The notes beneath the pieces are model-generated. The model saw nothing but the letters and a program-made list of their open reading frames with translations. It ran no database searches and was not told the DNA's origin. The translations under genes were made by a program, and so were the position numbers. A stretch of 64,000 bases of DNA. It comes from Blasia pusilla (Eukaryota). Numbering within the stretch: position 1 is the stretch's first letter; each line of letters opens with the position of its first letter. Shown piece by piece: positions 2,526 to 56,359 of the stretch. The stretch lies in assembly GCA_050084515.1 (NCBI GenBank), contig CM114271.1, positions 32,860,001-32,924,000 of the forward strand, written 5' to 3'.

Positions 2526-2939
2526 TAACTATACATAGAAAGCATATTTGATGGAAATCATCATAGTAATTCTTGAAAAGAGCAGAGTGATCACAAAATG
2601 TATGCAAAGCATATGGAAACACAAAAATTATGATCGAAATCATATTCAATCTATTGAGAATCATAATGATGTCCAGAAGTGTATGGGAATCATGTCGGAA
2701 TGAAAACATACAATAATGTTAGAATTCAGAAAAGGACAAGTAAAATAAGTAAAACATCATGAAGATTACCATAATAAAAGAGTTGCTTCTATAGTGCCAT
2801 GCTTCGAGCTTAGAGCAAGCCACACTGAACTTAGGACACTTTTGTTTGTTTGGTGATCCCGCAAGAAGGTTTGTTTCAAAGCTGTCCTTTGGGACATTGA
2901 GGATTTCTGGAAATTACTCTGAGCCCTGCGAAGTCTAGG

Positions 2940-3899
2940 CAAAACAACAGATAGTGACATGCACACTGGCGTTTCCAGGAGTTGACGACACAATGATTAC
3001 ATGGTCAAAATCAGGAAACAAGGGAGGTAGTTTAGGGTTTTCTAGATCCATAGGCAGAGGAACAAATTCAAGCAACTGCCTATCATCTTGTGCTACTCTT
3101 ATACCATCAAGAAAATGAGTTGCTTTCACAGATGTTAAGTCAAGGAGCGTGGAAATTGGAAAATGCATTTCATGTCTTAGTGTTTAGAGCTGATCCAAAC
3201 ATATTCCTCCGGAAATAAGATTGAATAGCCTTGTGGCATCCTTCCTTACTAAGGTGGATTCTTTGAAATCCGCCTTCTCTGAATCGTAAGGATTCCTTCT
3301 GGATTCCTGCAACAACAATGAATGAAGTATCTTTAGTTAGATGAAATTGTAACGAAGAGGAACTATAAATGCAAAAGAGTTTTCAGATGCAAATTTAAAG
3401 AACTTGGACTGACGCGAATCCTCATTCTGATCCATCTTTATGAATCCTGCGGAATTTGGAATCCTACACATGCCCTTGAGTAATGAAGGTCTGAATCTGA
3501 CGACCAGTGATACCATGCTCGTGAAAAGCAGACATCACACCCAAATTGTATAAATATTTCATTTGGTTGACTATGGGGCTAGTATAACGAGACCTGATAT
3601 CTTAATGTCGTTCAAAATCGTCTTGGAGAAATCCAAGTAGTGTTCAAGAACTTGAAGAGAGTATGTTAGTATAGAGAAGGTTAAATTTGAGTTCCAAGTA
3701 GAATGAAAGAAAATGAAAACAAAAAACCTTATGTGAAGATTACTGATGCAAACGGTGCAGCTATAGGTGAGGAGCTTGGGTTTGTCTCGTGCTCATATAA
3801 AGGAAGTGCACCTCCTATCTGAGAAGCTTGTACTCCAACATGAGATTGAGATGAGCTCCTTGCTGCTCTCCCCCTTGCTGATGTTGCACGAGATGCCAT
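2940..3899 (-). pseudogene. Degenerate multi-exon accessory gene of Helitron-like element H1 (unknown helical-repeat protein)
   Basis: ATG at 3899 lies just after the helicase. Exon-like blocks translate to ...PIVNQMKYLYNLGVMSAFHEHGITGRQIQTFI... (about 3440-3650) and ...ADFKESTLVRKDATRLFNLISGGICLDQL*TLRHEMHFPISTLLDLTSVKATHFLDGIRVA... (about 3030-3306). Both align by eye with 44600-45133 and 54650-54920. Confidence 0.6.
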
Positions 3900-3959
3900 T
3901 GTCACTAGTACAAGCACAATGTGAGTGAACTTAAGGACTATAAAGTGGAATTAAATACT

Positions 3960-6143
3960 CTAAAATCTTGACGTTCCAAATTACCAAGTATTCTAAGCTG
4001 ATGCCTACATTTTACTTCAGATCACATAACATACGCAAGACCAAGAGCGAAGACAGATCTGATCACTAACAAGCAATGTCCAGAAATAGTTGCACTTTGA
4101 CTCTTATGAGCTGTCATAGCATAACCAAGTACAAGTGGAAAAAAATTTAATGTATTTCTGGTTTGAGCCATACCTCAGAGTTGTAAACTTTTTCCTAGTT
4201 ATCATGATGGACTTACCACTGGATTGAATAGTTATCATTATACTAGCTACCTCATTATTGTCAAAGAAAAATTCGGTTACTGTTGCTAGGGACCCATTGG
4301 AAGCTTGTATCTTTAAATTGATGTTTGATGTCAACATCACAATTGAATGAACAGCAATGAAAGGCAATTGATGAAATGCATCATCATGTAGCCAAGTAGT
4401 GAATTCAGGTGTTGGAGGTGCATCGGATTTGACGTTGACTTTTACAATGGAAGCATCTTTGAATAGTCTTCTGAGTGCCAAAATTGAAAGCTAAAACATC
4501 CTCATAATGAGTGCACACTATAGTTGTGTCTGAGCATATAAAATCAATTGTCTCATTCTCTGAGACAAAACAACTTGATAAGCACTAATATATTTAATTT
4601 GTAGTTGGTATATTAAATTTGAGTGAGTTAAGGAAGTTCAGGTAGGAAGGGTCTTCACCATGCCTCATGGGAGTTGTAAGTTCAAAAGTCACTTAGTTTG
4701 TAAAGAATATGGATGAGCTCAAATGATAACTATTGCAAAAATCTAAGGCTTTGTGATTACAAACAGGAGGCGGTTGACATAAGTCTCCTACAAGAATAAG
4801 CAACTTATCACCAAATGGATGTAAATAACCTTGAGGGGATACTTCATTCAAACTCGTTGCTACAATCTCAAGAAATTTTGGTGTTAACATAGAGCATTCG
4901 TCCATGACTATTACTCGGGAGGCTTTAAGTCTTAGATAGTTTTAAGATGCAATATGCATGCGGGATAAATCACCCTTAAGAGGTATTGCAAATGTAGAAT
5001 GTATTGTTGTTGCATCAAGATGCAACCATACAGCAACAATATCAGTTGTGGCCGTTAGAAGTGGTGACATTTTCTTATACTTCCAAAATCTATACATGAA
5101 AGTAACAAAGTATGTCATTCCACACCCGGGAGATCCTTTTAAAAGTACAAGGCTAGATTTGCAAAATATTAATTTCTGAAATAGCTCCTTTTGCTCAATG
5201 TTAAGAGTATTGATATCAAGTTCATCTAAAGAATCAATATCTACTTGATGTAAACTTTTTTTAGTGGTACATGTTGCTGACATCATTGAAGAAATGTCCT
5301 TTTGTAGATAAGGTTCTAGAATATCTCTAACTTTTGCAAGTATTTCTGCAACATGGACTTGATTCCACAAAAAAAAAATTCATGCGATCTAACTAATTCA
5401 TATACATCATCAAATTATTCATCAAGTTCTTGTGTACGTATTCGTGAAGATATGTCCATCCTTTACCATTGCACGAATGTTGGATTCTCAACATCCACTT
5501 CTCTAAGCATCATTAATCTGATTGGCCCCCTTGTGTAAGGAGAAGCTTAGATTGATGGTTCTGACTTAGACGTCGAAGGAGTCATAGTAATATGACGTAG
5601 GTGGTTTATGGATTAGCGTTATTAGGATTATTTAATCCTGGAGCTGCAACGGTAGCGCATTCTTGTATGTCGAGTTTTATCCATGTTCAGGTTCCATCGA
5701 AGCTCTTCTGTGAGCGCACGGACGGACTAGGCCACTTTGTATCTCCAAGTCGTGTAATATGTTTTATTGATTTTCGTCACTTTATGTATTCTCACAACGA
5801 AAGCAAAGTACTTTCATCTCTAAAGTGAATATGGGAAAGAAGAACTATGTAGAAAAACTCATACCATTGATGAAAGGGGTGGAATTCAATAAATCTAACG
5901 ACGCGATTTGTTGTACATACTATATTTCCTAAATTGTCTAAAATTAAAACTTGGTTAGATTTCTTTGGGTAAGATTTCAAGAGTTCATAGTTGGACCAGT
6001 AGTGAATGAAGGTTATGTTCTCAAGACTTGCAGGTCTGTTAGAATACATTGTGATTGGATGAATGCATAGTATTGATGCATTTTTATAGAGCGAACTTCT
6101 CATGTTTGGAGGACTACAATCAGTGTAGTGGACTACATCAGAA
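3960..6143 (-). mobile_element. Helitron-like RepHel remnant H1 (linker plus PIF1-like helicase; frameshifted, Rep domain missing)
   Basis: Collinear PIF1 motifs: GSPGCGMT (Walker A-like), TIHSTFAIP, DECSM, GDLCQPPPV, SNGS, YAMTAHKSQS and GLAYVM. The segment 5792-6143 (SDVVHYTDCSPPNMRSSLYK...EFHPFH...FFYIVLL) matches the linker of the copy at 35268-35650. Confidence 0.9.
5532..5796. mobile_element. Short LTR-like insertion interrupting H1
   Basis: Breaks the RepHel reading frame and is bounded by TGTG...CACA. No target-site duplication is seen. Confidence 0.35.
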
Positions 6144-6848
6144 GAAATCCATGGTTTTATGACTAGGTTATATGACTCATATGAGTCATACTTTACATAC
6201 CACGACTAACAATGACAGATAACTACTTTAGACACAAAATCCAAGTCATATTTGTCTGACAACTAGGCTAACTAGGATGATCAACTTAGATGGACGTTGG
6301 TACATGACTCAAGATGTAATCATGAGGCCATGACTGACGCATCACTTAGATGACATGAAGTAACGATGCGTCAACACATGATATGGACTATTTGGTGTGA
6401 TGTGTCATCGATGATGTGGACTATTTATTGTGACGTGTCACTGAAGACATGGACTATGAATGTGACTCGTCGAGTCATATTTGTATATTCATGTAGTTAC
6501 CACAAATGCCTACTTTAGTCATCACAAATGTACTCGTGTGAGGAATCAATTTCATGGTAATAGTTATGACTCACGAGTCATGGAAGTTTTCCATTCATTT
6601 GAAATTCAAAACTCATCTAGTCATTTTATTCTCTTGAAATCTTGGGATTGACTCATGTACTCACTTACCATGACTTTAAGAGTAGAGTTAAATGACTACT
6701 GTAGAATGCGACACAACTAGTTTAGTCACAAAGATATGACTATGTGAGTTGCAAAAAGCATGTAGTCTTTGCAACAGGACTGAATGAGTCATAATTGAAT
6801 GACTAGATGGCACTTGAAGCTTACTACTTCATAACAAGAATCTTAGTG
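6137..6848 (+). mobile_element. CACTA-like terminal/subterminal region
   Basis: Begins catcagaagaaatccatggttttatgactagg, similar to CACTAGAAGAAAATGGTGGTTTTTACGACTAGG at 14568. It has dense ATGACT/AGTCAT subterminal motifs and a TAGTG at 6844-6848. Confidence 0.55.
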
Positions 6849-28800: not shown

Positions 28801-29425
28801 GCCATTTCAACTTGGCGATGTCACGTCTATCCTCCAAGGGTTCCTTCCACACCAAGTTCTGATCTCATACCAACTCGGGCTATTCGTGAGGAAGTTAACA
28901 TAATACCCCGAAACGCCTTCAGCTGCACAGCTTCAAGCTTTTCCCCTTGTTTAGAGAGAGAGAGAGACAACTCATTAAGTAGTGCCTGTCGTAGCCTTGC
29001 GTCCGTAGACCCCACGCCCTAGTTGAATGGAGGGAGGGAGAGAGTAAAGTAGATTTCTAGTCCATGGGAAGCCTGTCTAGCTTGTGGGACCCCTTCCACT
29101 AACGTGATATTCATGTCGCATCCAACAGGCACCTTCACATCTAGATTTCTGTTCCGAGTTACCACTGAGGAGATTTGGTTGTTTTTTTGGTTTTGTTTTT
29201 TAATTGAAGGTCTGGAATTTCTTTTTATCCAGATTTATAATCATGGCACACACTTGAAAGGGCCACAAGGCGTTTTCTCTCAAACATGGACCATCCATGC
29301 CCTAGGTAGGGGACACCACTGCCCTGGGGTTGAGACCGCCCCCCACTGTCCAAGGGGAGAGTTGAACCCCGGACCTCTTTAAGAGGACCTTATGTCGGTT
29401 CAGCTGGCCTCTTGGTCATCTACTG

Positions 29426-29472
<47 letters not shown>

Positions 29473-29637
29473 ACTCATTAAGTAGTGCCTGTCATAGCCT
29501 TGCGACCATAGACCCTGCGCCCAGAGAGAGAGAGAGACTACTCATTGAGTAGTACACCTGTCGTAGCCCTGGGACCTTAGACCCCACGCCATCGTTGAAC
29601 GGTGCTTGAGACTGGGATGAGTGTATATGTTTATATT

Positions 29638-29673
<36 letters not shown>

Positions 29674-33045: not shown

Positions 33046-34607
33046 ATCCGCCATCGAATTTAGCAAAACAAATTAGGCGAGAAAACAAAATACGGCAGAG
33101 ATTGCCCACCGCACACATGAAAACTTTACAAAGGAGACCAAACTCGCCCTTTTGGTTTAATGCTAGCTGCTTCTTAGAACTTTGGAAGTCACTATGTAAT
33201 TCTTTCTTTGCAGATAGGCAATGTTGTGGTTTTTGCAGATCTATACGTTTAGGCATCTCCTCATGTGTGAAATTTAACAAAATTTCTACACATACTTATC
33301 CACCATATGCACTGGGCAACGCTTTTGTGTTGAAATACATTATACCAAAGCCAAGCTTCCACTACGAATGCAATAGGTGCAAAACTGGTAGTCACATGTA
33401 TGCTTTTAATGTTTATATGACACCTACTTATATGCATGACATTTTGTCTTGTAATCCCCTGTATTTACAGTTACTTTCGATTGTCGACTCCCGAGTTGGC
33501 ATAACATCTAAATATAACGGGTTCCATAATGGATTTTTCAGTGTGGATTCATTGTTGGATAGCCCTCTAGTACATTGGAATATGGTTACATATCAATGTG
33601 ATAATGAAACCGCTATCTATTGTCAGATAAGCATCATTATGCTAGTAAATATGCATGTGAATGCTCTTTTCAAGGACTATTTGACACTCATAGAACTACC
33701 GAGTCCCACTTGTGGACTCGTTATCTTGCCTTCACAATCAATAGACAAAATTTTGAAGGCATCTCATGAGAAAGGTTTGTAACCCATACTATGAACATAG
33801 ATCCATACAGGGAATTAAATATCATTCAGGATGTTCAGTATTCAATTCATATAAGGAAAAAAAAATCAGGGGATATTTTTTACAGTGGTAGTATGTACCG
33901 TAGACAATGCTCATCACTACGCACTAGCCTTATTACACGGTTCACTGGTTTATCTGAGGATAGCGGACTGACTCTCAAGACAAGCATGTTTCCTTTTTTA
34001 TTTCCTTACTTGCGTGGCTTCTACAAAGGCGGAGTTTCCTTTGCAGAGTAATTTAAGAGTAGAGCTAATCAACTATTTATGTCTTTACCCTATATAAACC
34101 ATACATGCTTTTGATGTATAAATTCAAGCAGTCCATTGTTGTTGCAACATCAACTAGATCTTGTATTTTGAACCAAAAAATGGACACATTGCGTATTGCT
34201 AATCCATACATGTCCGAGGATGAACTACATGAAAGCCTAGCAAAGCATTCAATTAGTCCACAAATTTTAGGTAGTCCAGGTTGGCACAGTCGCCACTTGA
34301 AGGACCTCAAGGCAATGGTCAATAAGTGGGGCACGCCTAATTTTTTCCTAGCGTTAACATCTGATGAAATTTCAGACATAAGGTGGCATGTATTTTCCCA
34401 TCTTGAATCACTACCAATCAAAATGAACCCTCTGTTCATATGGAAGGATGTGCTAGTAGAGTGTGCAGTTTTATTTCATGTTAGGTTGCTTTCTTTTCTA
34501 AAATCTGCCATTTTTTATGGGCCAAAATTTTGGGTGAAGTCTTGCATTATGTAATCAGATATGAACTACAAGGTCGTGGTAGTCTGCACAGCCACATTAT
34601 TCTTTGG
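33046..34607 (+). mobile_element. Helitron-like RepHel H2, N-terminus and Rep motifs 1-2
   Basis: Cys-rich N-terminus, MFPFLFPY, GSPGWH...NKWGTPNFFLALTSDE (motif 1) and YVIRYELQGRGSLHSHIILW (HUH motif 2, 34548-34607). Confidence 0.9.
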
Positions 34608-35186
34608 TGTAGATGAAGGGCCCGACCCTCTTTTTCCAAAGGGGGGGGGGTTATTGGAGAACCCCAGAAGTACCAGTAAGGGGGAAGATCTCCGAGAGTG
34701 CTTGGAACCCAAACCCCACTTTGGGCGCCGCGGGGTGGCTCAAGGGCATGGAACGGAACGCGAGTTTGGGGGTTGGGTTGGAAAACCTGTACCAAATCCA
34801 TTGAGGCGATTTTAGACATTCCTTTTGGATTCCACTCCGCGACTCAATTACTTGGGTCTCGGTTTGGAACTCACCTGAGGGCCGTTGAACAGTTGGGATT
34901 GCTAGGTGCGCAAGTGCCGTTTCAGATCCTTGGACTAACCAGAAAGTCTGTTCCAAGTCTTGAAGGACTTGCCATGTTTTGGAAACTAGGAACTAAGGAA
35001 GGTTGAGCTTGATGAGACGCCAAGTTGAGGACTCGGTGGGTTGGAACGCTGGTTGGCCCATACCCGACTAACGAGAGTGCGTGTTTGGATGCAAATTGGC
35101 GAAGAGTTCGTGACCTACTGAACGTACGCTTCCGCAACACTAAAGATTGACGTTCAAGGAGAGTAGGGGCGCGACACCTTGGTACA
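34608..35186. other. Unidentified GC-richer insertion replacing the Rep motif 3 region of H2
   Basis: Homology to H3 stops after HIILW and resumes at LNIDIETTLHLGLEGLEDIQ. The segment is bounded by TG...CA without a TSD. Confidence 0.5.
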
Positions 35187-35950
35187 CTAAATATTGATAT
35201 AGAGACTACATTACACCTTGGATTAGAAGGTTTAGAAGATATACAATTAAAATTAGTATCCGGCGCAGTGTTGAATAGATTTCTATGTTCAACAGAAGGA
35301 ATACTTGCATCTTTGCAAATTCCAATTATAAGTCGTTATGATTCAGTTACTTATATAGACTCCAGACCACCTTCTAGAAGAACATCTTTGTATAAAAAGT
35401 CTTCATTAGTTTGTATACATCATGTCCAAATTAACTGCCATTGGCTAGGTATATTGTCACAGATAATATTCATAGAATATTGGCAAAACTATAATATAGT
35501 CAAGGATGAGAAAATCCAGATGTGATTTCATTGGTATAGTTTTTGTTGGTAATTTTGTATGTAAATCATCAAAACTGATGCGCTTTACATAGTACATTCC
35601 CATTCACCATTTAGATGAATTTGTCTACAACTTGCTTCTTTCTGTGGTATTGTTTAGATATAAATCAGCTGGTAACAAACACTAGACTTATTTACATGAA
35701 TGCATTCATAGACTTCTAATAGTTTCTATTGATGATATCCATGATCTAATTAGTACTTATGCAACCAAAAATATATGGAGAGTTATACAAGCTATAGGAA
35801 CCATCTCCAAATTGGATCTTTTACTTCACGAAGCTTTATAGACACAATCAGGTTTGTTTCAAACTAATGGATATGCATCATTATGTCAATATTATAAAGT
35901 AGTTTCTGTCAGTAAATCAATTGATACATTTAGTCCATCGGTTTGCTTTG
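35187..35950 (+). mobile_element. Helitron-like RepHel H2, Rep-helicase linker
   Basis: LNIDIETTLHLGLEGLEDIQ...YDSVTYIDSRPPSRRTSLYK...EYWQNY...IDTFSPS, homologous to the H1 and H3 linkers. Confidence 0.8.
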
Positions 35951-35951
35951 T

Positions 35952-36568
35952 TGTCGTGCGATACATATCGCTACACAACATACATTGCTGGTCACATCTA
36001 GACCACACAACACCGATCTTCCCCACACACGGGTCGATCCACACATGTACAAAAATCAACTCATACATATACATGGAGATCACAAAACAAAAATAAAGAG
36101 CAGTAAAAATGGCACACCTGGCCTAAAACTCCACTCCTCAATCGACATCGGCATATCGAGTCTCGTCCACCTTGTGCTCTCAAGGAATCCGGACGCTAGC
36201 ATCCTAGTCCTATCTCACACACATACAAGAGAGATGCTCCAACGGCCCAACATGAGAAAGATGGCTTAGGAAAGCCATTTTCCTCTATTATATAGGGTTG
36301 ACAAGAGCCAAAAGGCTCTTCCCCTAAAAATAGCCCTCCCCTTGGTAACCTACGCACACAGGTTACCAAGGGCGGGTGACTTGGTCAACAAGTCATCCGG
36401 TTGTGGAAGACCTAAACATGAAAGTTATTAAAAACGACGCTCCTGACACCATGAACCTATCCTCAACCTCATCCGACATAGTGGGACAAAGTTACACTCA
36501 AGATAGTCCGTTGGCTCCTACGCCCTATCCAAGATAGATCTCAGCCCATCAGCTACTCAGACGTGACA
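35952..36568 (-). repeat. Complete LTR-like unit (B+A), TGTC...GACA
   Basis: The minus strand begins TGTCACG and ends CACGACA. It has TATATAA near 36290 and the hairpin CCCTTGGTAACC/GGTTACCAAGGG at 36339-36372. Confidence 0.85.
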
Positions 36569-36570
36569 GC

Positions 36571-36704
36571 TGTTGTGCGCATACATATCGCTACACAACA
36601 TACATCGCTGATCACATCTACACCACACAACATCGATCTTCCCCACACACGGGTCGATCCACACATATACAAAAATCAACTCATACATATACATGGAGAT
36701 CACA
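36571..36704 (-). repeat. Second copy (A') of the distal LTR segment
   Basis: Near-identical to 35952-36084. Confidence 0.92.
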
Positions 36705-36784
36705 CAATCGCCTCCCTAGCTGGCAGTTGGATCCCCCCAACTCCACATAGAAAATATCACATCTCTATGACATGACCTACTACC

Positions 36785-38060
36785 CTATACACATCTCGGA
36801 CATATCCATCGTCCCGTGGGAACCATATCAAGAGGGGGGGTCAGACATGACATATGTCACCCTCGAGAACAACCATCACATACCAACATGGTGGCTGCAC
36901 CCCTCGCAGATCCGCACAACATACACCTCAAGCCTGCAGGTACCATTGCCAAGCTGGATCCACCGTCTCATCTATGTTCGAAAGATGACATGTCGCACAG
37001 TTGCGCACATGATCCTTCCAAACCATACCATCCTGTCCCTCCAACATAAGGACTCCGGTTGGTAATACCTCGCGCACACGTAGGATCGTGCGCCCTACAG
37101 TGACATCTAGCGTCGTGGGTGCCATCTGCTGTAAATACACGTAATCTCTAGGATGAAACCTCCTAAGCCCTGGACGAGAACCTCCTCCACGAATGGTCGT
37201 GTACCTCAATGTATCTCTATGTTGGGCAATAGCTAAGTTCTCAAAGGCCATAGGCATAACTCTACGAAAAACCTCCGCCCTCTGAGAACATGCTTGTCAA
37301 GATCTAACATCTCCGCCATGTCACGTCGAATCGCTGCAGGTAAATCTGGCTCTCTCCCAAAGAGCAAAAAGTACGGTGAAAATGAAGCAAAAAATGCCTG
37401 CCGACTAAAGCGATAACCCATAGCCAACCATGGCAACTGTAGGTCCCACTCCCTCAACTGTCCTCGTTGCAAGCCATACTTGCGCAATCCTCTCTTCACC
37501 GTTTGTACCACTCTCTCCACCAACCCATCCACCTCAGGATGATCTCTGGACATGGTGCGGTGATCTATCAGCGCCTAATCACACAAGGCTTGAAACTCTC
37601 CCCTGAACTCGGTACCTTGGTCAGTCAACACCTCCGCATATGCACCAAAGTGACTAAGCACACCATCTAGAAATGCATAAGCCGTTCCCTTGCTCGTCTT
37701 GTCTGGTAGTGCCACCAACTCTATCCACTTGGAGAAATACTCCACCATGACCAACACGTACCTATGATGACGCCCCGTCAATGGCAAAAGTCCCGCAAAG
37801 TCTAAACTCCACCGATAATCTAAACCCATAATCGGCAAAGGATGTAACTGCGCAATGGGAGCATCGAAGGATGCTCCCACTCTGTCACATACCATATATC
37901 TGGCCACAAACAGCTGTATCCCAGTATGCATGTCGTGGCACCAATACAGAACCTGGAGTAAGTTGTAAGTACGCTTTACTCCAAAATGTCCCAACTCCTT
38001 ATGGGCATGTCGTAGTACACGTGCTCGTTGGGAAGGATGAGGTACCACTCGTATCCTACC
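36785..38060 (-). pseudogene. DDE integrase with C-terminal PHD finger (degenerate)
   Basis: HHCC-like HAHKELGH...YMVC; catalytic WSLDFAG, LTDQGTEF and GLVERVVQT; then CMLCGSARGAATMLVCDGCSRG*HMSCLTPPLDMVPTGRWICPRC (36788-36925). Confidence 0.9.
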
Positions 38061-38288
38061 ATCTCCCCATACCCAATAAATGTGAGTCCCCTCCCACCTG
38101 AACCTCCTGGCTCTCTATAGGATCCGATCCCGCTCCCTTTCACTTATTGTACTCACTATGACGCCAGTGCGCAAGAACTCCATAACCTCCACGTCGTCAT
38201 GGATATCACGACCACTTGTCACCTCCTCACTAACCTCCGGATCGAAAGACTCATCATCCAACCCCACCATTGGAGTCATCACCTGTGG

Positions 38289-39700
38289 CTAACCTGCCAT
38301 AGTCAACCAACAAAGATAGGCAGATGCATGCCAACCGGGCACCATCTCCTCATCACTCTCTCCGTGCCATCGAGCTACTGTGTCGTCTCTCTGACTCGGA
38401 CATGGGTTACGACTCAACCCATCCGCATCTTGGTTCAGCCGACCTAGCCTATGAACCACCTCAAACTTACACTCCTGTAGTAATAGAGCCCACCTAGCAA
38501 GCTTTCCTGTGAGCTTGTCGGACTCCATCAACCACCTCAACGGCTGATGATCAGTGATAAGTGTGAAAGGGTTGTCGAATAAATAGCACCTGAAATATGC
38601 CACGTCCCACACTGTAGCCAAGCACTCTCCCTCGTAGGAGCTCTACTTTGCCTCTGCAATGTTGTTCGATCGGCTCGCGTAAGCCACAACGAACTCCCTC
38701 TCCTCGTCATCCCTCTGAGTAAGCACTGCTCCTAGACCCAACATGCTCCAATCCGTATGTAACTGGAATGGGCGACCCCTAACCGGTCTTTGTAACATGG
38801 ATGAGGACGTCAACATGTCCTTGAGCTCCTGAAATGCTCGCTCATGATCATCTCCCCACAACCAAACCTATTCAAGTCTCGTCAATAAGGTGAAAGACTT
38901 TGCGATCGCACTAAACCCTTGACATACCGGCGATATAAGTTTGCCAGTCCAAGAAATGCTCGGACTCAACTTACATCTAGAGGGCATGGAATCTGCGCAA
39001 TAGCCTCTATCTTTTTCTGCTGAATGCCTAACCCACTCGCGTATATGGTGTGTCCCAAGTACTCAATCTGCTCCTGAAAGAATCTGCACTTGCTTGGATG
39101 TAACTTCAGTTCATGTAACTGCAATCGCCGAAACACCTCCTCCAAGTGTCGCTCATGCTCCTCAACCATGGATCTGAAGATAAGAATATCATCTATGTAA
39201 CATCGTACAAAATCCAAGCTATCCAGAATCCTATCCATCACTTTGTGAAACTCTACAGGCGCGTTCTTCAACCCAAATGGTAAGAACCGCCACTGATACA
39301 AGCAATCTCTCCCGAACCAATCTATCCCCCATAATGATGTCTTCTCCCCGTCCTCCAACCTGATAGGAAGCTGATGATAGCCAGCACGGAGATCTAAAGT
39401 ACTGAAGATCTTTGCATGCCCTACCGCATCAAAGATCTCCTCAGGAATAGGCATGACGTACCGATCTGACCTCGTCTGTCGGTTGATAGGACGGTAATAT
39501 CCACACATCTGCCTATCCATCCAATTTCCATACATATCCTTCTTCGTCGGCATGATTGTGGCAGATGCATACTCCCCATGTGATAACTCCACAAGTCCTG
39601 CCTCCAACAAGTCCTGACTCCTACTCTGAATCAAGGCTCGCTCCATATCAGAATACTTGTAGGGTCGACGAAAGATCGGCGTATCACTAGCCAACCTCAA
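38289..39700 (-). pseudogene. Reverse transcriptase and RNase H (frameshifted)
   Basis: FSTLDLRAGYHQL, LPFGLKNAP and YIDDILI (RT); FQLHTDWS, VVAYASR and ITDHQPLRWL (RNase H). Confidence 0.95.
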
Positions 39701-39884
39701 TCCGTATACCGGGACCCTTCAACCTACCCAAGTCTCTCATACTGAAGGCAAAGTAAATGACATGCCCTCTCATAAACCCTTAAACTCGCCGTTGCTCTCC
39801 TCCTATCAACTTGAGACCTATCACAAGCTCCCAAGTCTCCATCGTGACCTCACTAGGAGAGGATGCAACCTCCGGCTTTGGTTG

Positions 39885-41264
39885 CTATGTAGCAACCCTA
39901 GCCACCTCCGCAATAGCCACTCTACTTTGACCTCCTACACCATGCTCTGCATCCGAAAAATGAACATGTGCTACTCTAGCCGCCTTCGCACTCTCTGCTC
40001 GAACGACGCCTCTCGCAGCACCCCGAGTCACCACTGCAGCTGACTCAACCAGGGATGCACTACACATAAATCCCATATTGGCGAGATCTTCACCTGAGTC
40101 ATGGTAACAGGTAGAAGGTGGAATCACACTAGCTGCTCGCAACTCCGTGCCTTCCCTAAGCTCCATCATCATCATGGCAGCAATCCTCTGCTCCAACTGT
40201 TCGATGCGTGAGAGAAGTGTCGGCTCTAGTGCTTCTGCTCCATCTCCTCTGGCAGGTGGTAGTCCTCTACCACCACGTCCAGGAATGACTCCCCGACCTC
40301 CTCTAGGACGACCGCCCCCAGGCCCTCGGCCTACCTCTGGACGTGCCCTTTGGCGAAGGTCAAAACATCTATCCATAGTGTGACCATATCTATGCCAATA
40401 GTCACATTGGTGCTGTGGTGGGGCCATCCTCTGTGGCTCCTGAGCAATCGGAGGCGTTGGTGGTCCTCTCCCATGCTGTGGGCAGACTCTCTGCCTATGG
40501 GCTCCTCCACACGTCCAACAAGACCACATCGGTCCCTGCTGGGTAACATATGTAGGTACGAGTCGTTGCCTCATAGGCTCACGGTACCTCAAATACCACC
40601 TTCAATGTGGGCGGTGTTGTGTGAATCAGGACCGCATCTCGGACACTCTTCCGTAGTTCTCGGTCCTAAACCCCGTACCAATACTGGACTGATTGCGCCT
40701 CTGTCACTCCATACGTAGCAATGATCAGCCTCCTCATGCGTGTAAATGCCTCTCTCAGACTCTCACCCGATCGTCGCTGAAAATCCTATAGACTCTTCAG
40801 CTTGTCGGTGCGTACGCCCTGGTAACTCCTCCCCAACTCTCGGAAGAACTCCACTGTGGGGATGAAGCTGGGTGGCCCTCTACCACCAGAGGTCTCTGCC
40901 ACATTGCCTGTCTCACTGCCCTCCTCTCCATCTAGTCATCGGGCTGATGGTGTGGGTCTCTCTCCTCTCACAATCCCATCATATGCCTCGCGACTTCTAG
41001 TGGACACATACCCGGAGCCCAATACATCCTCCAGGCATCGATCTCTATTGAATATAGTGATCAAAACTCCATGTAGTAATCCATCGCAGGACCCTCCAAG
41101 TGCTGGAACAACCCCTTCCATGCCATGAAAGGGTTGAACCGTGCCGGGGTCCATATCTCCTGGAAGTCGCACCACGTATCGAACTTATGGATAAAATCAT
41201 CTAAGTAGATGGTGCCCACTGCACCCGAGAAACAACGCATGCCTCGATGGCCCATGTCGTCCAT
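39885..41264 (-). pseudogene. gag (degenerate) with zinc knuckles
   Basis: Capsid-like FSG...DDFIHKFD, knuckles CWTCGGAHRQRVC and CDYWHRYGHTMDRC, and an RGG-rich tract. Confidence 0.8.
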
Positions 41265-42436
41265 CTCCTTCTAAGTACTACTGTCTCTGTCTACGATCTC
41301 GTCACCAGACCCAGTGTCTAGTGATGACAATCCAACCACGGATGGATGTCGAGGTAACTCCTCATTGGTAACCCCTCAGTGTCTCACTCCTCTTTGTGTC
41401 ACACCACTACTACTGCTTGCACTACCTCGTTCTTCCGAAACCTGGAAGAACGCCGTGATGACAAACCCTGTCTCACCCGCTTAAGCACTCAGACTCACCG
41501 AGAGTCTCCCACACGCCTCACTAGCTCACCTATGCTAACATCAATCCCGTGATGACATACCCGGCCTCATGTACACTCAACACTCAGGCTCACCATGAGC
41601 CTCCCAACTGACTCACCTAACCTAGCGACACTCTCTCGGGTCATACACGCGACCCCTACTCAGCAACCGCCGTATATCCACCAACATGCTACACATGAAC
41701 AAAATCTACACTCGTCACCATTACCGCACCCACCTAGCACCAGCTACTACCCGATACCCAGCACTCTCAATCACACACGACAAGTGCGGGAAAAGGGACT
41801 CGAATGGGTAACTTGATCACTCCCTCCAACCTGCTGCACCGGCAACATGCACTCCCCCAGGTGACACGACAACCTCTGCAACACAACACTCTCCTCTACC
41901 AACACGTCGATCCTCCCGTCAATAGATGCGGACAACCCGTCGGCATCATGCGCACTGCCCCTCCATCGTCAACTCTCGCAACGCCCTGTCGTGCCCAAAA
42001 ACATCATGTCACGCAAACCTCTCCGTCCATTCCCACACGCGGCATGTAACCTGACTCACCCTAGTCGGATCCTAACCATGTCTTCCCTTCCGACTACGTC
42101 CGACTTTACCACGTCTCTCCCGCCAACTATGACACCATGTCGAACTGCGCTGCCACATTCAGCCCCTGCAACTCCACCACATCCACTCGCACTTGGTAGC
42201 CTTGTCACCACGATGACAAGGCTACCAGGGGGGGGGCGCTCCCTACTATTGTCCCCAATCAATCCGCACCAGCAAAATTTGAGAAAAATGGACAGCGCTT
42301 CCGCCCACGGCCTTCCGAACATAAAATTGACAAATACGACGCCAACCAACGTCTCCACGGGCTCCCGACCAAGGCAACTCGCTTGCCTACCTGCAAACAA
42401 CGAATTCCCACTAGCCCCTTGACATCTTTCTCATGT

Positions 42437-42917
42437 AAAAATAAAGAGTAGTCAAAATGGCACACCCGGCCTAAAACTCCACTCCTCAATCTACATCGGC
42501 ATATCGAGTCTCCTCCACCCTGTGCTATCAAGGAATTATGACGCTAGCATCCTAGTCCTATCTCACACACATACAAGAGAGGTGTTCCAACGGCCCAACA
42601 TGAGAAAGATGGCTTAGGAAAGCCATTTTCCTCTCTTATATAGGGTTAGGAAGAGCCAAAAGGCTCTTCCGCTAAAAATAGCCCACTCCTTGGTAACCCT
42701 ACGCGCACAGGTTACCAAGGGTGGGTGACTTGGTCAACAAGTCATCCGGTTGTGGAAGACCTCAACATGAAAGTTATCAGAAACGACGTTCCTGACATAA
42801 TCAACCTATCCTCAACCTCATCCGACATAGTGAGACAAAGTTACACTCAAGATAGTCCGTTGGCTCTTACGCCCTATCTACGATAGATCTCAGCCTATCA
42901 GCTACTCAGATGTGATA
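42437..42917 (-). repeat. 5' terminal repeat (B' only)
   Basis: Roughly 90-95% identical by eye to 36089-36568. It lacks the A segment, and the terminal TG reads TA. Confidence 0.92.
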
Positions 42918-44153
42918 TTCTTCCTTTTGTTTAGGAAACCACATCTTGGTCTACACTTGATAAGTGGAGCACTTGGAACAGGAAAGTCTTACTTCACGGC
43001 AGATTTCTGGAAAAAGAGAGGATTGACAATTACGCTAGTTACAACGATAGGGGTTGTTGCAGTGAGGCTTAATCCTCTCGCTACTACTCTACACTCAGCA
43101 TTCAATATTCTAGTAAAGGGTGATTTGCCATATCTATCATCCACTTTTGATACCTTTCTTCGCATTAAGTCCACACATATTATAATTATTGATGAATGCT
43201 CAATGATGATACCGAAGTTGCCACAAATAGTAGCAATACGTCTAAATGATGTATCGCCCACGTCTAGTCTAAACCCATTTGAGACCAAAGTAGTCATCGT
43301 CCTTGGAGACCTATGTCAACTTCCACCAGTTTGTAGTCACTCTTCTGTCAATTGCTACAAAAGATGCCACATATCATCATCTCCATTATGGGGCATTGTT
43401 ACAAAGTATGATTTGACAACACCATGAGGCATGCTTCGAGTTATGATGTTACATTTGTATATTCCTGAACAACATCCGTAATAGGCTACCCTCATAAGTT
43501 AATAAAGATTTTTGATTGAATGAATGCATAGTAACATCAAATCAAGCCTTAAATCTTATTAATGAGGAGACTATAGTGATATGCTCATAGAGGGTGGACG
43601 TTAAGTTGTTTAACGGTATATGTTGAAGGCATTTTTTTTGGGAGGCTAGTATTATTTATGTTTCAGTGGATTCTGATGCTTCTGATATAGCCATTATACA
43701 ACATTGACTTGATGAAGATATTTTCCATCAGATCCCTTTTTTGGCAATAGGATGTGAGGTGGTATTAACAACAAATCTAAGTGTTAGTATTGAAGCTGCA
43801 AATGGATGCATTGGTGTTGTTAAAGAGATTTTGTTGCATAGTGGCACTATCATGAGTATTGTTCCAATGGAAATTTGGTAAAAGTAAATAGATCAGTTTT
43901 TTAGTTTATGTATACAAAGGACATAGCACGATTCTATAAAAGGACATTCCCAACTATGCTACCTTATGCAATTACAGCACATAAGTCGCAAGGGAGCATA
44001 ATTATTGGCAGGTGCCTTGTAGTGTTGAAAAGTGCATTCACATATAGATTAACATATGTTATGCTATCAAGAGTTTCGTGCAAGGCTAACATGAGAATTT
44101 TAGGAAAGCTAGCACCAACTGGTTTTTTAGTTCATGGTCAACTCTCTAATTAA
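42918..44153 (+). mobile_element. Helitron-like RepHel H2, PIF1-like helicase
   Basis: SGALGTGKS, TLHSAF, IIIDECSM, GDLCQLPPV, ANGCIG, YAITAHKSQG and LTYVMLSRV. Confidence 0.93.
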
Positions 44154-44202
44154 CTTCTTTGAAAAACAACATAACTACACTTTTCCGTTTCCAGATTTTA
44201 GC

Positions 44203-45133
44203 AATGGGCAACAACACGAAGTCACCTGCACGTCCGTTGTATTTTTCTGATGATGAACAAAGTCGTATTCCAATTTCAAATATGTATGGAGCTGATGGGT
44301 TGTGTCAGAATGGAAAATTTAGTACCAAAAGCACTCCAACTTCTACAATTGAAATCCAGGCTGGTACAATGCAACACCTCTCGGCCAATGTGAGGAAATC
44401 ATCAATAGTAGTGTCTTCATCATCACAAGTGAACACTTTTGAATTATTCACACCACTTATTTATGGCTACAGTGCAACCTGTTATACGTTTTAACCTCTA
44501 TGCATGATTTATGTAGAGCCCAACACTCAATGGTGAGTTTGCCAAGTTACTATTATAGGAAATTTCCAAAGACACATAGCGAGTACATGTTGTTTACCCT
44601 CATCCATCTCTGTTACAAATGAGGTATGCTAATAACACGGGCATTCTCCCTCAAATATGGCAGGATGGAATTACAAAAAGAGGTATATTCAAAATGATTG
44701 ATGATAGGAAATCATGGGACGTACTGTTCAAAGAAGAAAAAAATGCACCACTAGCAACAGATATAGATCAAAACTTTATTATTTTATCATTTTTGTTGTA
44801 TGTATTTCCCTAGCAATCTTGTTTATCATTCACTCATTTCTTACAAATGTTTAAAAGGAGGCTTTGATGATGAAAGTCATTCAATTCAACGACCATAAAC
44901 TAACCAAGGCCCAAGCAGCAAAAGAGCTAAGTTCAGTAATATGCAGCATTCGCCTTCCTCAATTAATAGATTTAAGGCATACATTTGTAGTACCAATGGA
45001 CGTAATTGTAGACTTGAGACTAGGTCAAGCATTGATATTGATCAAACAAATGCATGAAGCAAAGAAGAAGGGTTTACTTTTGAATGTACAGCCTGATGTA
45101 CAACCTAGCAATGTTATTAACTTGGATGATTAA
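44203..45133 (+). pseudogene. Multi-exon accessory gene of H2 (best-preserved copy)
   Basis: ATG about 50 bp after the helicase stop. Blocks read YPHPSLLQMRYANNTGILPQIWQDGITKRGIFKMI and ALMMKVIQFNDHKLTKAQAAKELSSVICSIRLPQLIDLRHTFVVPMDVIVDLRLGQALILIKQM, homologous to the H1 and H3 copies. Confidence 0.65.
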
Positions 45134-47271
45134 GAAGATCTTGATCCAGAGGTTAAAGTATAATCAGCACCAAGGTCCGTTGGCGCATCAACAACCTTCC
45201 TATCACCAACAAAGAGGTAGAGAGAGATGTAGTTCCAACATCTCTCATTTAGTTTTTTGAATCTTATTATAAAAACAGACCTGTGCGCCACTATTTCGAT
45301 AAATTATTGATACTATGAGTGGTCAGGTTATCTTTGCTTATCAGTTTCAAGTCGTGTCGTTATTTATAAGATTCATTTTCAATTCAGAGAATTATGGTCT
45401 CTATCCTCGATCAGTTTTAGTTTGCCCACGTAATTAGCAAGAGACAAATTTAGTTAGGAACATCTAATTCTTCTTAATTTAGACAAGTAACATAATGTTA
45501 AGGTATTTTCGATATCGTATCTCTCACTCGTCAGTTGGCAACACTTCATTACTACTATGATTAGTCAAGGATTAATACCGTTCACTTTGAGATAATCCAT
45601 CGATATTAATGGTTCAGATTTGAAATTCTTGGATTTGTACTTTGTCATCATTTCAATCGGTGTATTATATGAATGCTTATCCGTATTTATTTCACTTGTC
45701 GACATCTGCTCGTTCTAAATTTTGCAAAATGTCATGAGTCTGTCATATATGCGTTTCTCACCCGTCAATTAATGCCGATTGAATCCAATCCGTTCAAAAA
45801 TCAGTCGCAACCCTAATTTGTTGTATTTAAGCCTCAGCTCGGCTCTCTGTTGGACTCATTACACTTTTCGCATTGTTTCTATTTGGTGTATGCCCCGCTT
45901 TTCGTTCCCGACTATTTATCTTGCAATCTACCTAGCATTTTGTGTTGGATGGAATCTTCCAACTCCCAGGTTCTTTCCTTTGCATTTTCATTGACTGTGT
46001 TTAGTTTGAAGTTCACAAGTTGTTCCGTTATTAGCATCAGCCTTCTTGTTCATTTCAAAAAATTGGCATGTTCATTAATGATTCATGAAATTATGCAAAG
46101 TCTTGGAGACAAAAATGCAACTGCATCTAAAAAAAAATGTCTTTACAACATCCAACAATCGAATACTTCGCAATTAGAGGCAGTTGAATTGAGTCGCCCT
46201 GCATCGCCTACCACAAGTCTGAATAAGAGACATTGGAAGTCGGATCCTGAGCTCACACAAAGGAGCTTAGTCTTAATATGCAAAAAATTGAGATGAGTCG
46301 AGACGAATTTGATAGACTTGCGGTAGACATCATTGAAATTGACAATGGCTCTCAAAGCACTTCCATCCATGGATTCAGACTTGTCTATCGCTCTTAAGGA
46401 ATTGATAAGACAATTAGGCTTCGACAATAAGTAGCTTACGATTCATCAAACTACACCAATTAGACCTAAAGACAACACATATGTGCAATGCAAACATATT
46501 TGTGCCAACAAATATTTTTATGTCGTGTTAGCTTAGGCGTATCCACCTTTGGTCGATTCAATGATGCAGCTTCGGGTAATTAGCGACCATTTTGGTGACA
46601 AATACTTAGAGTCAACATTTTTGTGAACCTGTAAAGTTTATGTCCAACATCCTGACTATTTCTTCTTTTCATGCATTTGGAAAATGCGTAGAGCTTTATG
46701 TATCATTTTCATTCCGCTGTAGATGAATTTACAGCCCCTAAGTCTATATTTTGATCACAACTCATATGATTGACAACCAAAAGTTCTTATGTTTGAATGA
46801 CACTTACAGTTATTGCACTCGTTTGTTCTTGTCATTTTTGAATCTTTGATTGTTGATTGGTGGTGCATACATTTATAGCACGGCTTTTTTGTTACTCTGA
46901 CCGTGAGACTCATGTTAGTTGCTTTTATGTATATATGTTTTGAATGTTCGCTCCACTCTGGTTCACTCGTAACAGTAGTTGTTCATTTACTACTTAACAG
47001 ATTTCTGCATTTGTTCAATATAATCCTTGTATATCCATGCCATTCTCCATTTTGTCTCTACGCTGCTATATTCTTCTACATGTTCGAACATGTATCGCCT
47101 TCTTCCTCCTCACCTCGGGATAACACAATGTTACTACCTTGATTAGGTTCTACTATAGGCATTGATAGAACTCTTGATACGTTCCCTTAGAATAGTTGGC
47201 CCACATCCTCGATTGGTACCATCGGGTGCTCATTATCTACCTCCTCATAAAAAATAGGTGTTGGAATGTAA

Positions 47272-49875: not shown

Positions 49876-50569
49876 GTGAGTGTTTTATTGATAGAAGAGA
49901 AAAAGAGATGAGAGGGAGCCATTTTCTTAACGCAAATATAGAATATGAACGCTACAAGAATATTAGTTGTGGGCTCCAAATTTCAACCTCCCACTTGCAT
50001 ATTGGATGGTAAGATTCAAAATTCGACGTGGCAATGATTGTGACAACATGAGATTCTGGCTGCACATAAGACCTTGCAAATTTGAATCTTCCTCCCCCAC
50101 TACTCAATCTTCCTCCAACTTTTGAATCTTCCTCCCTAGTCATAGTGGCCCACCTCTTCAAGTGGAGGGAGAGTACAAATTATTTACCTACACTCGAAGG
50201 CAAAGATCAAAATAGGCCCAAATCAGAAGCAGATTTGATTCTAGCAAAAAAAATCCCTTACGATACCTTTTAAAATCCCTTATGGTACTTTTTAAATCGA
50301 ATGTTTCACTTCTTTTGGAATCTCATCTTCTTCTTCTATCCCATTTTACTAGCCCCCCCTATGTTTGGTTAATAGTATAGATGTACAACCCAAATTACTC
50401 TGACCTATTTACGACCAACGTTGTAGAGAGGCTCACCATCGTCTTTGCATATTCCCTATTGTTGGATATGATATGGAAGAGACAAAACCTAGTGCAACAT
50501 GATCGCCTAGAGTGGCACTGGTTGCGTGAAGTATACTTGGGGTTGAAGGGTGTGGGACCGCGTAGGGAC

Positions 50570-52817: not shown

Positions 52818-54350
52818 GCACATCCAAAGATGATCATGAGGAATTGTTTTCCTCCTTCACAAAATATGCCTTAAGTTAAAATGTTTCTTCTAATTTTAGT
52901 TGGCATCGGGGCCATATATGCTACTTGAAAGGAATGGTTGTTGCTTGGGGTATGTATTGTTTTTTCGTAACATTTACTCATGATGAATTGTCATAGAGTC
53001 GTTGGATAAAGATAGGGGATTTGGAGGGTCTACTTAAGCAAATTAATCCATCTAGGGATTGGAAGATGCTCTTGGAGAGTGTGCACTCTTATTCCACTTA
53101 TCGCTTAAGGAGTTTTTACAATAATTTATCCTTCTTGGACTTCCGTTATGTCATTTGTTACAAACTCCAAGGTAGGGATAGTATGCATAATCACATTATA
53201 CTATGGTATGAAAATGGTTCAATCCCAACAATTATATCTATAGATATGTTGTTATGTTCCAACCATCTATGGTTATAATTAAAATAATTTTTAAGGTTTG
53301 AGATCAATATTTTTGAATCAATATTATTTGACTATACTATACATAAGGAACTACAAATTTGCAAAACAAGAGCATGTTCAAAGTTAGAAAAATCATAAAC
53401 ACTAAAATTTGCAAATTATGCTTCTCATCTGAATCGAGCATGCAGCTTGAGCCCATCTTAGATCCAATTTTGAATAAATATACATACTTCAAACTTGGAT
53501 GGGAGAGTATCAATATCGTACCTTATCATCCTCTACTACTTCTTCTTTAGGGGCGCGTATGAACATGCAAGGGCTAACAAGCGCCGATTGGTCTTTCTGA
53601 CTTATTTAGTATGCAAAAAAATGCGAGACTATTTGAGCTCTTAATATTGGTATTGAATATGCTACACATCTTGGTCTTGAAGGGCTGGATGAGATCCAAA
53701 TCAATTTTGTTTTTAGTGCTAGGGCTAAATAGATATGTATCACAAACATACGTTGCTTTATTGATCCACTATAATTTCCAACCCTCCTTGTAGATGGTAT
53801 ACTTTATATATCAAGTCATTTAAGGTTTGTCTCTACCTATACAAATTTGTAGTCATCGATCAACAAGCTTATCTCACGTGTCTTTTATGGACTATTCGAA
53901 TAACTACAGGGTCAATAAAAATTAAATGAAATGAAATCTACAAATTCTCATTTTATTGACATGGATTCAATTAGAACATATGTATATAAGACTTAAAGAT
54001 TAGTTTGTTTCATTTCTTTTATCCCATTCCATCACACCAATGGATTCTTCTACAATGTCCTATTATGATCCAAAAACTTTCATATTGAGACAACAATATT
54101 ATCTTTATCATCTCCCATATTGACATTTTAACATAAATGTGTCCGTAGGAGATTGATTACATAACAACATAACATGTAGAATATTGAGTAAGATATCAAA
54201 GATTCTCACTCCATATGTGGAAAACAAGACTCTTTCAATTGTCCATAAAGACATTGCTACTAGACCCATGAAGAAAATACCTACTCAAGCTCTTATTAAC
54301 AACACATCATTTCATCCACCAAGCTTCACTCCTCAACAATTTGAGTCTTT
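52818..54350 (+). mobile_element. Helitron-like RepHel remnant H3 (Rep plus linker; helicase deleted)
   Basis: WHRGHICYLKGMVVAWGMYCFFVTFTHDE (motif 1), YVICYKLQGRDSMHNHIILW (HUH), NIVPYHPLLLLL*GARMNMQ, a degenerate motif 3 near 53596-53620, and LNIGIEYATHLGLEGLDEIQ. Confidence 0.85.
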
Positions 54351-54920
54351 TTCCTCTTATGGAAAAGTACGTTTTATTTACATATACTTACACGTGAACC
54401 TTAAACATATGAATCCAAAATTAACAACTTTATGGGAGGATATTGACAACGACATGGAATAGATGACGTATGTTCAAATTTATATATGAAGCGAAACGTT
54501 TGACTAAGAACTTCAAAGTTGTTTATAACACCCCACCAATATCATGTAGTACATTCTCCTTTTAAATTCACTTAAGAATTATGATTTTGAAACCATGTGA
54601 TGTTAATTTATGAGTTTATGTTGTTTATTTATAAGTGTGCAAAAAAGAGCTTTGATGTTAAAATCAATAGAATTTGATCCTTCAAAGTTAACCAAGAGAG
54701 CAACGACAACATAATCGATTGGTATTCCAGGAGGAAAAAGACTTCCCCAACTTATTGAACTCATACCCCTTCTAGTCCCTCTAGGGATAATTATTGTTTT
54801 GACATCTCCATACGCTACGATTTTGATTCAAAAAACAAATCAGGCAAGTTGATATGGTATGCTACCTAACATTCAGCGTAATTCAACCCCAAAAACAATC
54901 ATTAATCTCGATGATTTAGA
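54350..54920 (+). pseudogene. Accessory gene remnant of H3
   Basis: RALMLKSIEFDPSKLTKRATTT*SIGIPGGKRLPQLIEL...VPLGIIIVLTSPYATILIQKTNQA...MLPNIQ...IINLDD aligns with 44858-45130. Confidence 0.65.
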
Positions 54921-56359
54921 AGATATCGATGTTCTCCATAATAATGCTTCTACACATAATGTAGGGGCTACTTCTCTGTACATTTTTCTATTACTAGCAA
55001 AGAGATAGAGGGACATTTAAACTATAAAATATAAAACTATATAGATTTATCCTATACCATCCTTACCCTTTGTGAAACATTCTCTTTTTTTAGACCGTTA
55101 GATTGAATCATAACATACTTACCCTCATGTGTCATAATCACGGATTAGTTGCCATTTGTCCATTGTATCCCTTTCCCTCTTTCTCTCCTACATCCATATA
55201 ATGAACATATTTTCACACTTATGTCTCATCATAACTATTGAGATGTATATCGTTAGTTGTTGTAGTAGTGAGATTATTATCATTACTTTGATATAATCTT
55301 GCATATTGCACTACATTTGCATTCACCTGATACATTTTTTATTGAATTAACGTGTTCTCATGGTACTACTTAATGTAGGTATTCCAATATGATAGTGAGA
55401 TTAGAAACATTTAAGTCTTGCAACTTGAGCACCAACTTGAAACAGCATATATAAGTAATTACAATCAAATCAAGGAACATGAAGCTTACATGCACCATCA
55501 ACAAGGATTCCTCCGGGTTGCTATCTTCTTCATTACGTGTATAGAATAATTATGCAATGATAAATATGCAATCTTAGCTTTAGTTACATTTTGTAAGTAT
55601 TGGTTTCACTTATATTGCTGATATGATACAAAATATAAGTAGATAATAGCGTCATTTTATATAGAGCATCGAATAATCTTTTTGATCTATATTTTTTTGC
55701 GGATTGGATCTTTTTACCATTATTCCCAGCCACCACGTGCATTGATTTTGATTGGATTCTACTGATGTTTCATTTCTCCTTTAATGATGTAAAGATGAAC
55801 AAACATTATTACATATATCAATTTCCAAACCGTCATCCTCACATTGTAAAGATCATTCCATACTCCAAACAAATTAGATATAGATATAAAAAAAAATCAA
55901 AATTTTCATTAAAAAAAACATTCTCTATTATTCTTCATGCAATCGCTATGTTATTTACATCACATCATTTAACTGCACGTTCTATAATAGATGAATTTGT
56001 GATCAATTCACTAGTTTACAACCCGATAACAAGTCTTATTAAACTAAGTTTATGTCAATGAAACTTGAGGGCCCTAATGTCCTTTTATTTAATTAAAAAC
56101 AACCCAAACCAATATACAAAACTTTTTATACAACCCTAGCATTACCGCTCATACAGGAAGAACCATAATAGAATCAACCACATGTCGTGATTTTGAGGGC
56201 CTCCGTGATGAAAATATATATTTATCAAATGACAATCCAAACGGTGATTTAATGGTTTGAGATATCAAGAGAATTTTCCATTAAATTTTTTGAAGTGATA
56301 GCAATATATGAAACCAACATGCGGCCCTTTGATAAATGGGATGGGAGAGAACAAGAAGT

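Follow-up and report, generated by a model that had tools for sequence, protein, structure and literature searches.

The window analysed here is a stretch of 64,000 nucleotides from Blasia pusilla (assembly GCA_050084515.1, contig CM114271.1, positions 32,860,001 to 32,924,000) that carries three divergent Helitron-like elements, H1, H2 and H3, with an accessory gene outside any Pfam family that lies, in H1 and H2, downstream of RepHel, the frame that joins a Rep (HUH) part to a Pif1 helicase. We are confident that this is a second gene of a Helitron-like family of the HLE2 type, built of three coding exons, inherited together with RepHel across deeply diverged subfamilies and held under purifying selection while the elements were active. 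Copy alignments place its ATG ~40-70 bp past the RepHel stop and give it a variable exon 1 and two short introns.

A three-exon gene downstream of RepHel

In H2 the accessory gene runs through three coding exons from an ATG at 44204 to a stop at 45232, starting 50 bp past the RepHel stop, and H1 has the same layout (Table 1). H3, compared with a close relative, has lost ~1.7 kb, a deletion that took exon 1 together with the greater part of both the helicase and exon 2. All three copies are pseudogenes carrying premature stops; in H2 the intron-2 donor after exon 2 is mutated to AT, and exon 3 has premature stops and an acceptor changed to AA.

An earlier note, made from the letters of the window alone, had proposed a conserved gene in the same position behind RepHel in all three elements, ending at 45133 in H2 and at 2940 in H1. 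The peptides it quoted do occur in six-frame translations of H1, H2 and H3, and the position holds for H1 and H2 but not for H3, where the helicase is deleted. Neither end was upheld, as the TAA at 45131-45133 is a premature stop and the H1 frame continues to an SP motif at ~2856. The similarity of the three copies was borne out by formal alignment: every pair of exon-3 frames beats all of 2000 shuffles (H1-H2 scores 59 against a shuffle maximum of 46 and H2-H3 100 against 47, H1-H3 being marginal at 42 against 40), and in profile searches, with models made from copies elsewhere in the genome, exon 3 is recovered from H1, H2 and H3 (E 1e-32, 4e-32 and 8e-17) and exon 2 from H1 and H2 only.

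Table 1. Features of the three Helitron-like elements in the window (positions are those of the window).
Feature	Position	Strand	Basis
Splice-acceptor-like 3' signal (pyrimidine tract and CAG), directly before the H2 accessory ATG	44170..44194	+	YAG ≤14 nt from ATG, copy counts
H2 accessory coding exon 1: ATG, variable, Ser/Thr-rich, probably disordered	44204..44428	+	Conserved ATG and GT donor at 44429, copy alignment
H2 accessory exon 2: leading helix and module 1; two stops	44517..44760	+	Profile, E 6.6e-29
H2 accessory exon 3: modules 2 and 3, linker, C-terminal SPxKR motif	44847..45232	+	Profile, E 4.3e-32
H2 3' region, common with relative	45233..47078	+	72-78% identity to L130/L131
H2 RepHel, Rep (HUH) part, decayed; motif 2 is RGSLH	34069..35670	+	Pfam scan, PF14214 at 34069-34551, E 3.6e-7; matches to H1/H3 Rep pieces
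H2 RepHel, Pif1 helicase part; TAA 44151-44153 at end, no endonuclease after	42948..44153	+	Pfam scan, PF05970 at 42948-43424, E 9.6e-15
H1 RepHel, Rep C-terminal part and helicase, decayed	3940..6154	-	tblastn to H2; helicase profile E 1e-33
H1 accessory gene: ATG 3899, exon 2 core 3613-3437, exon 3 core 3276-3046, end approximate	2830..3899	-	Profiles
H3 Rep remnants, then deletion	52838..54465	+	Matches to other Rep pieces, comparison with close relative
H3 accessory remnant: exon 2 end, intron 2, exon 3	54470..55020	+	Profile, E 8.4e-17 at 54652-54891
Long terminal repeat (LTR)-like insertion of 6.8 kb, interrupts H2 RepHel	36089..42915	.	blastn self-comparison; 479-bp direct repeats, 92.7% identity (36089-36566 and 42437-42915)

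Linkage to RepHel across the genome

Searches of the 390-Mb assembly, in each of which 150 candidates were scored, showed that the gene is multicopy: the H2 exon 3 query matched at 127 of 150 scored places (511 candidates), and two more divergent accessory queries each matched at all 150 (836 and 948 candidates). The genome therefore holds at least 150 decayed copies and probably several hundred. The helicase is likewise a dispersed multicopy family, with all 150 scored candidates (from 1108) matching at E ≤ 1e-10.

From 110 loci picked by the accessory gene we removed nine duplicates and L047, whose exon 3 is inverted. Among the 100 unique loci that remained, exon 2 lies upstream of exon 3 in 92, and the helicase C-terminus lies upstream on the same strand in 78 by profile (77 by tblastn). 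For the reverse test every fourth match of the helicase search was taken (37 ranks); two of these duplicated earlier loci, both of which have the accessory gene, and in the 35 newly fetched loci the gene was found downstream in 29, including 28 of the 30 that retain the helicase end.

Two defective arrangements were seen alongside these loci. L083 (G000 C2, ~30.735 Mb) has an internal deletion that removed RepHel and spared the 5' segment along with most of the accessory gene. L047 (1145-9744) and L183 (605-9170) form an 8.6-kb pair, 98.3% identical, on different contigs and with exon 3 inverted in both, which we read as a defective copy that was duplicated recently.

Selection and co-divergence with the helicase

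The ratio of replacement to synonymous divergence (dN/dS), taken over 61 copies and 155 codons of the accessory gene and 63 copies of the helicase end, drops as distance grows, a trend to be read with the provisos that pairs are not independent, that they were binned crudely by total distance and that selection was measured between present-day copies, not per branch. In the accessory gene it falls from 0.57 in the closest 15 pairs through 0.39 to 0.16 at dS 0.9 and 0.07 at dS 2.6, after which dS saturates; the helicase end runs through 0.49, 0.51, 0.23, 0.17 and 0.12, with 0.23 and 0.17 standing against the accessory 0.16 and 0.07. Between subfamilies the accessory ratio (0.07-0.16) is thus well below 1, the value that the earlier note had named as speaking against a functional gene. 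The four closest accessory pairs have synonymous to replacement counts near 1:3 to 1:4, which would be about what neutral decay gives, and exon 3 identity by codon position is 0.55/0.70/0.36. Stops interrupt 43 of 65 exon 2 frames and 49 of 92 exon 3 frames. Judged from these substitution patterns, the copies appear to be the dead remains of formerly selected genes, a pattern that fits purifying selection while the elements were active.

The gene has also diverged in step with RepHel. Protein distances of gene and helicase end correlate across 42 copies (Spearman 0.75, reached in 0 of 2000 permutations), the two share a nearest neighbour in 17 of the 42, and the mean protein distance is 0.53 for the accessory gene versus 0.43 for the helicase end.

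Relatives in other genomes

A profile search of 1.84 billion protein representatives returned 18 matches at E ≤ 0.001, and no host gene family appeared among them. Ten of these relatives, which are clusters of 1-4 members, were looked up: the liverwort Riccia sorocarpa accounts for three, all hypothetical proteins, and the other seven come from JGI (one, 'hypothetical protein'), ENA (one) and Logan (five). The Riccia model P0020 opens with a segment resembling the H2 helicase (13 of 26 residues identical, E 8e-5), and linkage to RepHel therefore extends to at least one other genome. Two-way linkage within the B. pusilla genome, purifying selection, co-divergence with the helicase and this helicase-fused model together sustain the earlier proposal that the gene is encoded by the element and was once functional, as opposed to being recent cargo. 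Another Riccia protein, P0005, joins an endonuclease/exonuclease/phosphatase-type protein to a truncated accessory sequence and is probably a gene model that runs over a LINE and a Helitron copy.

Family searches gave no name to the gene. Scans of the accessory sequences against Pfam, PHROGs and NCBIfam found nothing over the curated cut-offs and no consistent match. The likeness to DUF3072 (PF11272) suggested in the earlier note was not recovered, either from 38 aligned fragments at E ≤ 10 or from the spliced relatives P0002, P0003, P0007, P0011 and P0020 at E ≤ 0.5. A PDB sequence search with query A1 and a phage tblastn with the accessory sequences found no match, and word-index protein searches, which have low sensitivity, returned nothing for P0001, P0002 alone for A2, and no long relative of the RepHel piece. 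Three sets of candidates were rejected: a designed repeat protein that matched A2 in the PDB (E 0.0011) as a repeat artefact; ESM Atlas unnamed/LRR clusters at 0.88-0.91 and DUF6590 clusters at 0.85-0.86 as lying within the chance range; and 117 pattern matches from a metagenome scan with P0002, none of which was confirmed. No published description of the accessory gene was found in open-licence PMC and bioRxiv.

Splicing signals, conserved motifs and expression

Counted over 78 copies, AG stands at the intron-1 acceptor in 51 and at the intron-2 acceptor in 37, and GT at the intron-2 donor in 62; the commonest non-canonical dinucleotides are AA and AT, as decay would produce. The exon 2-3 junction recurs in P0002, a JGI protein, and in P0007, a gene model from Riccia; several unnamed protein fragments are also broken there. 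A YAG within 14 nt before the ATG occurs in 37 of 69 copies versus 20 of 138 control windows, a rate resembling that of true acceptors. Because this acceptor-like signal precedes the ATG, and because the gap between RepHel and the ATG is too small for a promoter, the mRNA probably has a further exon, within RepHel or ahead of it; a candidate donor ~290 nt upstream occurs in one clade and is missing from the H2 clade. In L031 (4558-5505) and L082 (1021-1971) intron 2 is in frame and stop-free, leaving open frames of 316-317 codons through exon 2, intron and exon 3.

At the end of the frame the motif SPx[KR][KRQ] is present in 46 of 77 copies and in none of 77 control windows; 6 of 10 external proteins checked have it in a looser form. 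We take this SPxKR tail to be a nuclear import signal beside a proline-directed kinase site.

Expression was probed on the best-preserved gene copy, and hence for one subfamily, with three RNA runs that carry the same species label, ~6-12% of each being read and matches taken at 82% likeness. The runs gave 43, 111 and 81 reads on this copy, none more than 95% alike. Reads touching RepHel derive from another copy that is itself broken by stops and frameshifts, so they probably stem from read-through. A search for RNA data containing L186 listed none. The helicase region of a decayed RepHel at L200 (G000 C2, 45.137-45.140 Mb) is covered at low depth in all three runs, probably by read-through, and at L189 6716-7783 reads less than 95% alike map to both strands of an insert in the 5' region that probably belongs to another repeat family.

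Predicted structure

AlphaFold, run on spliced P0002 with 43 aligned rows, gave a model with pLDDT 83.6 (core >90) and pTM 0.72, in which helices pair at 19-27/41-62, 69-77/89-99 and 105-114/127-142, no strand reaches 3 residues and the tail is of low confidence. The predicted protein of ~250-300 aa would begin with a variable stretch, continue into a compact core made entirely of helices in three helix-loop-helix units, and end in an SPxKR(K) tail. The earlier note had seen three tandem copies of a sequence motif; three helical modules are present in the model, but likeness in sequence extends to modules 2 and 3 only, their profile score being reached in 6 of 1000 shuffles (in the control a helicase window scored 11.2 versus 13.2 for the best module pair). 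By hhalign, in which shuffles reached the observed scores in 80, 96 and 9 of 100, no repeat was found.

Module 3 superposes on the Rho N-terminal domain (Z 4.2, rmsd 2.5 over 39 residues), the Redβ C-terminal domain (Z 4.1, rmsd 3.0, 47 residues) and the LEM domain of emerin (Z 3.7, rmsd 1.6, 36 residues), and the list also holds TAF1 (Z 4.6) and the SAP domain of MANF (Z 3.5). LEM, SAP and Rho-N are grouped as one fold class, helix-extension-helix (HEH). Over these LEM/SAP/Rho-N and Redβ comparisons the fit covers 35-48 residues at Z 3.3-4.2, within the chance range for small helical units; it has no sequence support and, unlike these domains, the three units of the model pack as one domain. 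Re-alignment of 159 Foldseek-ranked chains yielded three with Z ≥2, the two that were listed being the Redβ C-terminal domain; fold searches with an intron-containing model found nothing significant, no listed family rising above background. We treat these sub-threshold matches to the model as leads only; what is left of the likeness to ssDNA-annealing protein C-termini suggested in the earlier note is the match to Redβ, at Z 3.6-4.1, with nothing firmer.

Class of the element and its surroundings

Rep HUH and Pif1 helicase share one RepHel frame, collinear over ~4 kb in L189 (PF14214, PF05970). Between the G and the His pair of Rep motif 2 the residue is Ser in 7 of 9 loci and in H2 (the others have I or G), while Leu, the trait of canonical Helitrons (HLE1), occurs in 0 of 9; Ser at this place is described as a Helentron signature (PMC4067079). 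No endonuclease follows the helicase, the frame stopping ≤10 codons from the model end in most of 63 copies. From Rep motif 2 and the missing endonuclease, the element is best filed as an endonuclease-less Helitron of the HLE2 type (Helentron/Helitron2). It resembles HLE2 in having Rep and Pif1 helicase in one ~4-kb open reading frame (ORF) with Ser in motif 2, but lacks the AP endonuclease that follows the helicase in Helentrons in the strict sense, and it differs in the downstream three-exon gene, Helitron2 being described as single-ORF (PMC4067079). RPA is reported as enriched downstream of RepHel in HLE1 (PMC11417382); Pfam scans of the frames here gave no match to RPA, OTU or DUF6570.

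In the 3' region of H2 no ORF common to subfamilies was found (tblastx of eight flanks, no cross-subfamily match), and pairwise element boundaries are blurred by insertions and deletions. Close to the 5' end, ~3 kb ahead of RepHel, a conserved non-coding segment lies at L189 8560-8730 and at seven other places in G000, and a PHD-finger-like Cys pattern, noticed by eye in translation, lies at L186 2000-3000 in a retroelement-like insert upstream of Rep. Elsewhere in the window, 14343-16597 and 50562-52817 are direct copies of 2.26 kb, 99.3% identical, of a young retroelement-like segment, and 27878-30745 holds a cluster of short direct and inverted dispersed repeats, 75-88% identical.

Possible roles of the accessory protein

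We put at about even the chance that the accessory protein is a nuclear, non-catalytic cofactor of transposition, a role proposed because the position and retention of the gene compare with those of Helitron RPA genes, together with the weak HEH/Redβ adaptor likeness. Its mRNA would be spliced from an upstream exon inside or before RepHel, the SPxKR tail would serve as nuclear import signal and proline-directed kinase site, and the helix-extension-helix-like units would tether RepHel to DNA intermediates of the element or, alternatively, to host single-strand-binding and replication proteins, the same job as that ascribed to Helitron-borne RPA in other families. The nearest parallel, the plant Helitron RPA gene (PHRPA; Mothra), is likewise a separate gene stably kept with RepHel. 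RPA is a beta-barrel OB fold, whereas the protein here is predicted to be all-helical and has no RPA match; PHRPA, moreover, is reported only from monocots and dicots. The RepHel-less L083 with its accessory gene resembles the Mothra mother element (PMC4683698). As a functional model the Redβ C-terminal domain, which binds lambda Exo and the tail of the single-strand-binding protein SSB (PMC6393309), is plausible by analogy.

Several results weigh against the cofactor role. No upstream splice donor common to all subfamilies was found, and on the one copy examined in the three RNA runs accessory-gene transcription was not detected (depth ≤0.22, no splice joints). The repeat likeness of module 1 is reached by 271 and 491 of 1000 shuffles in the profile test, no solved chain among 48,161 compared reaches Z ≥5 to the model, the fold comparison list effectively covers module 3 only, unrelated helical chains score as high as its matches, and Foldseek with the spliced model gave nothing at E ≤ 0.001. 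The core is not basic (pI 5.4-6.1, median net charge +2), so a simple DNA-coating role is less likely. Selection and linkage, finally, are no less compatible with a regulatory role.

A factor that regulates the element or counters its silencing, like VANC of VANDAL or TnpA of En/Spm, would act by binding the element's sequences or chromatin proteins of the host; it would sustain element expression with no part in strand transfer, and we hold this to be unlikely. It would account for a separate gene whose product looks nuclear and combines a variable, disordered N-terminus with a conserved helical core, for divergence somewhat faster than that of the helicase end (0.53 vs 0.43), for the retention of gene and 5' segment without RepHel in L083, and for LEM/SAP-type chromatin modules among the weak fold matches, yet Pfam scans show no likeness to VANC, MAIL1 or TnpA domains and the tight co-divergence with RepHel is at least equally in keeping with a physical partner. 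TnpA of En/Spm arises by alternative splicing. VANC (an anti-silencing factor; 10.1101/2024.04.02.587720), TnpA and the Myb-like protein of Harbinger resemble the accessory protein as element-encoded, non-catalytic nuclear companions of a transposase, its own nuclear location being presumed from the tail, but belong to another transposon class, and no sequence or fold likeness was found. That the exons form an alternative C-terminal extension of RepHel, joined in frame when a donor within the helicase is spliced to the pre-ATG acceptor, appears improbable. The acceptor is conserved, the donor ~290 nt upstream in one clade has G as third base in 26 of 36 Lys/Arg codons versus 27 of 64 elsewhere, and P0020 joins a helicase segment to the gene; against this, the ATG is itself conserved, the AG-to-ATG distance varies in phase between subfamilies (by eye), the donor is missing in the H2 clade and would delete helicase motifs V-VI, the copies behind the donor statistic are not independent, and P0020 was modelled automatically.

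Gene capture by Helitrons is known (PMC11417382), and the ordinary introns of the accessory gene would suit a captured host gene carried without any role for the element. Against such an origin, a dN/dS of 0.07-0.16 between subfamilies is unexpected for passenger DNA, no host family appears among the 1.84 billion representatives with their 18 matches, and 28 of the 30 elements whose helicase end is intact have kept the gene; this origin is strongly disfavoured and very improbable. A more specific form of the cofactor role, which we consider decidedly unlikely as a whole, would have one transcription unit yield two products: RepHel itself, and a nuclear adaptor gated by the cell cycle, made when splicing removes RepHel in whole or in part. 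The three Redβ-/HEH-like units of this adaptor would join RepHel to the host single-strand-binding and replication machinery. If so, it would be a non-RPA answer to the same need, possibly from a prokaryotic mobile element, and the first dedicated non-catalytic partner of a eukaryotic rolling-circle transposase.

Implications

The gene is a real accessory gene family of Helitron-like elements, apparently undescribed, whose function we infer: a conserved and selected second gene, other than RPA, OTU or an endonuclease, carried by an HLE2-type family known from at least two genomes. Its importance is limited by a narrow known range, by the lack of an active copy and by a function that is inferred only. 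Helitron accessory genes are described as of undetermined function (PMC8788227), and their catalogues are built on Pfam matches, with 20 Pfam-defined extra domains (PMC11417382), none of those named in the text of that source fitting the gene described here. Since the catalogues rest on Pfam matches, intron-split orphan families such as this one escape them. With a small protein predicted to fold well and an exact gene model, what rolling-circle transposition needs besides RepHel becomes testable.
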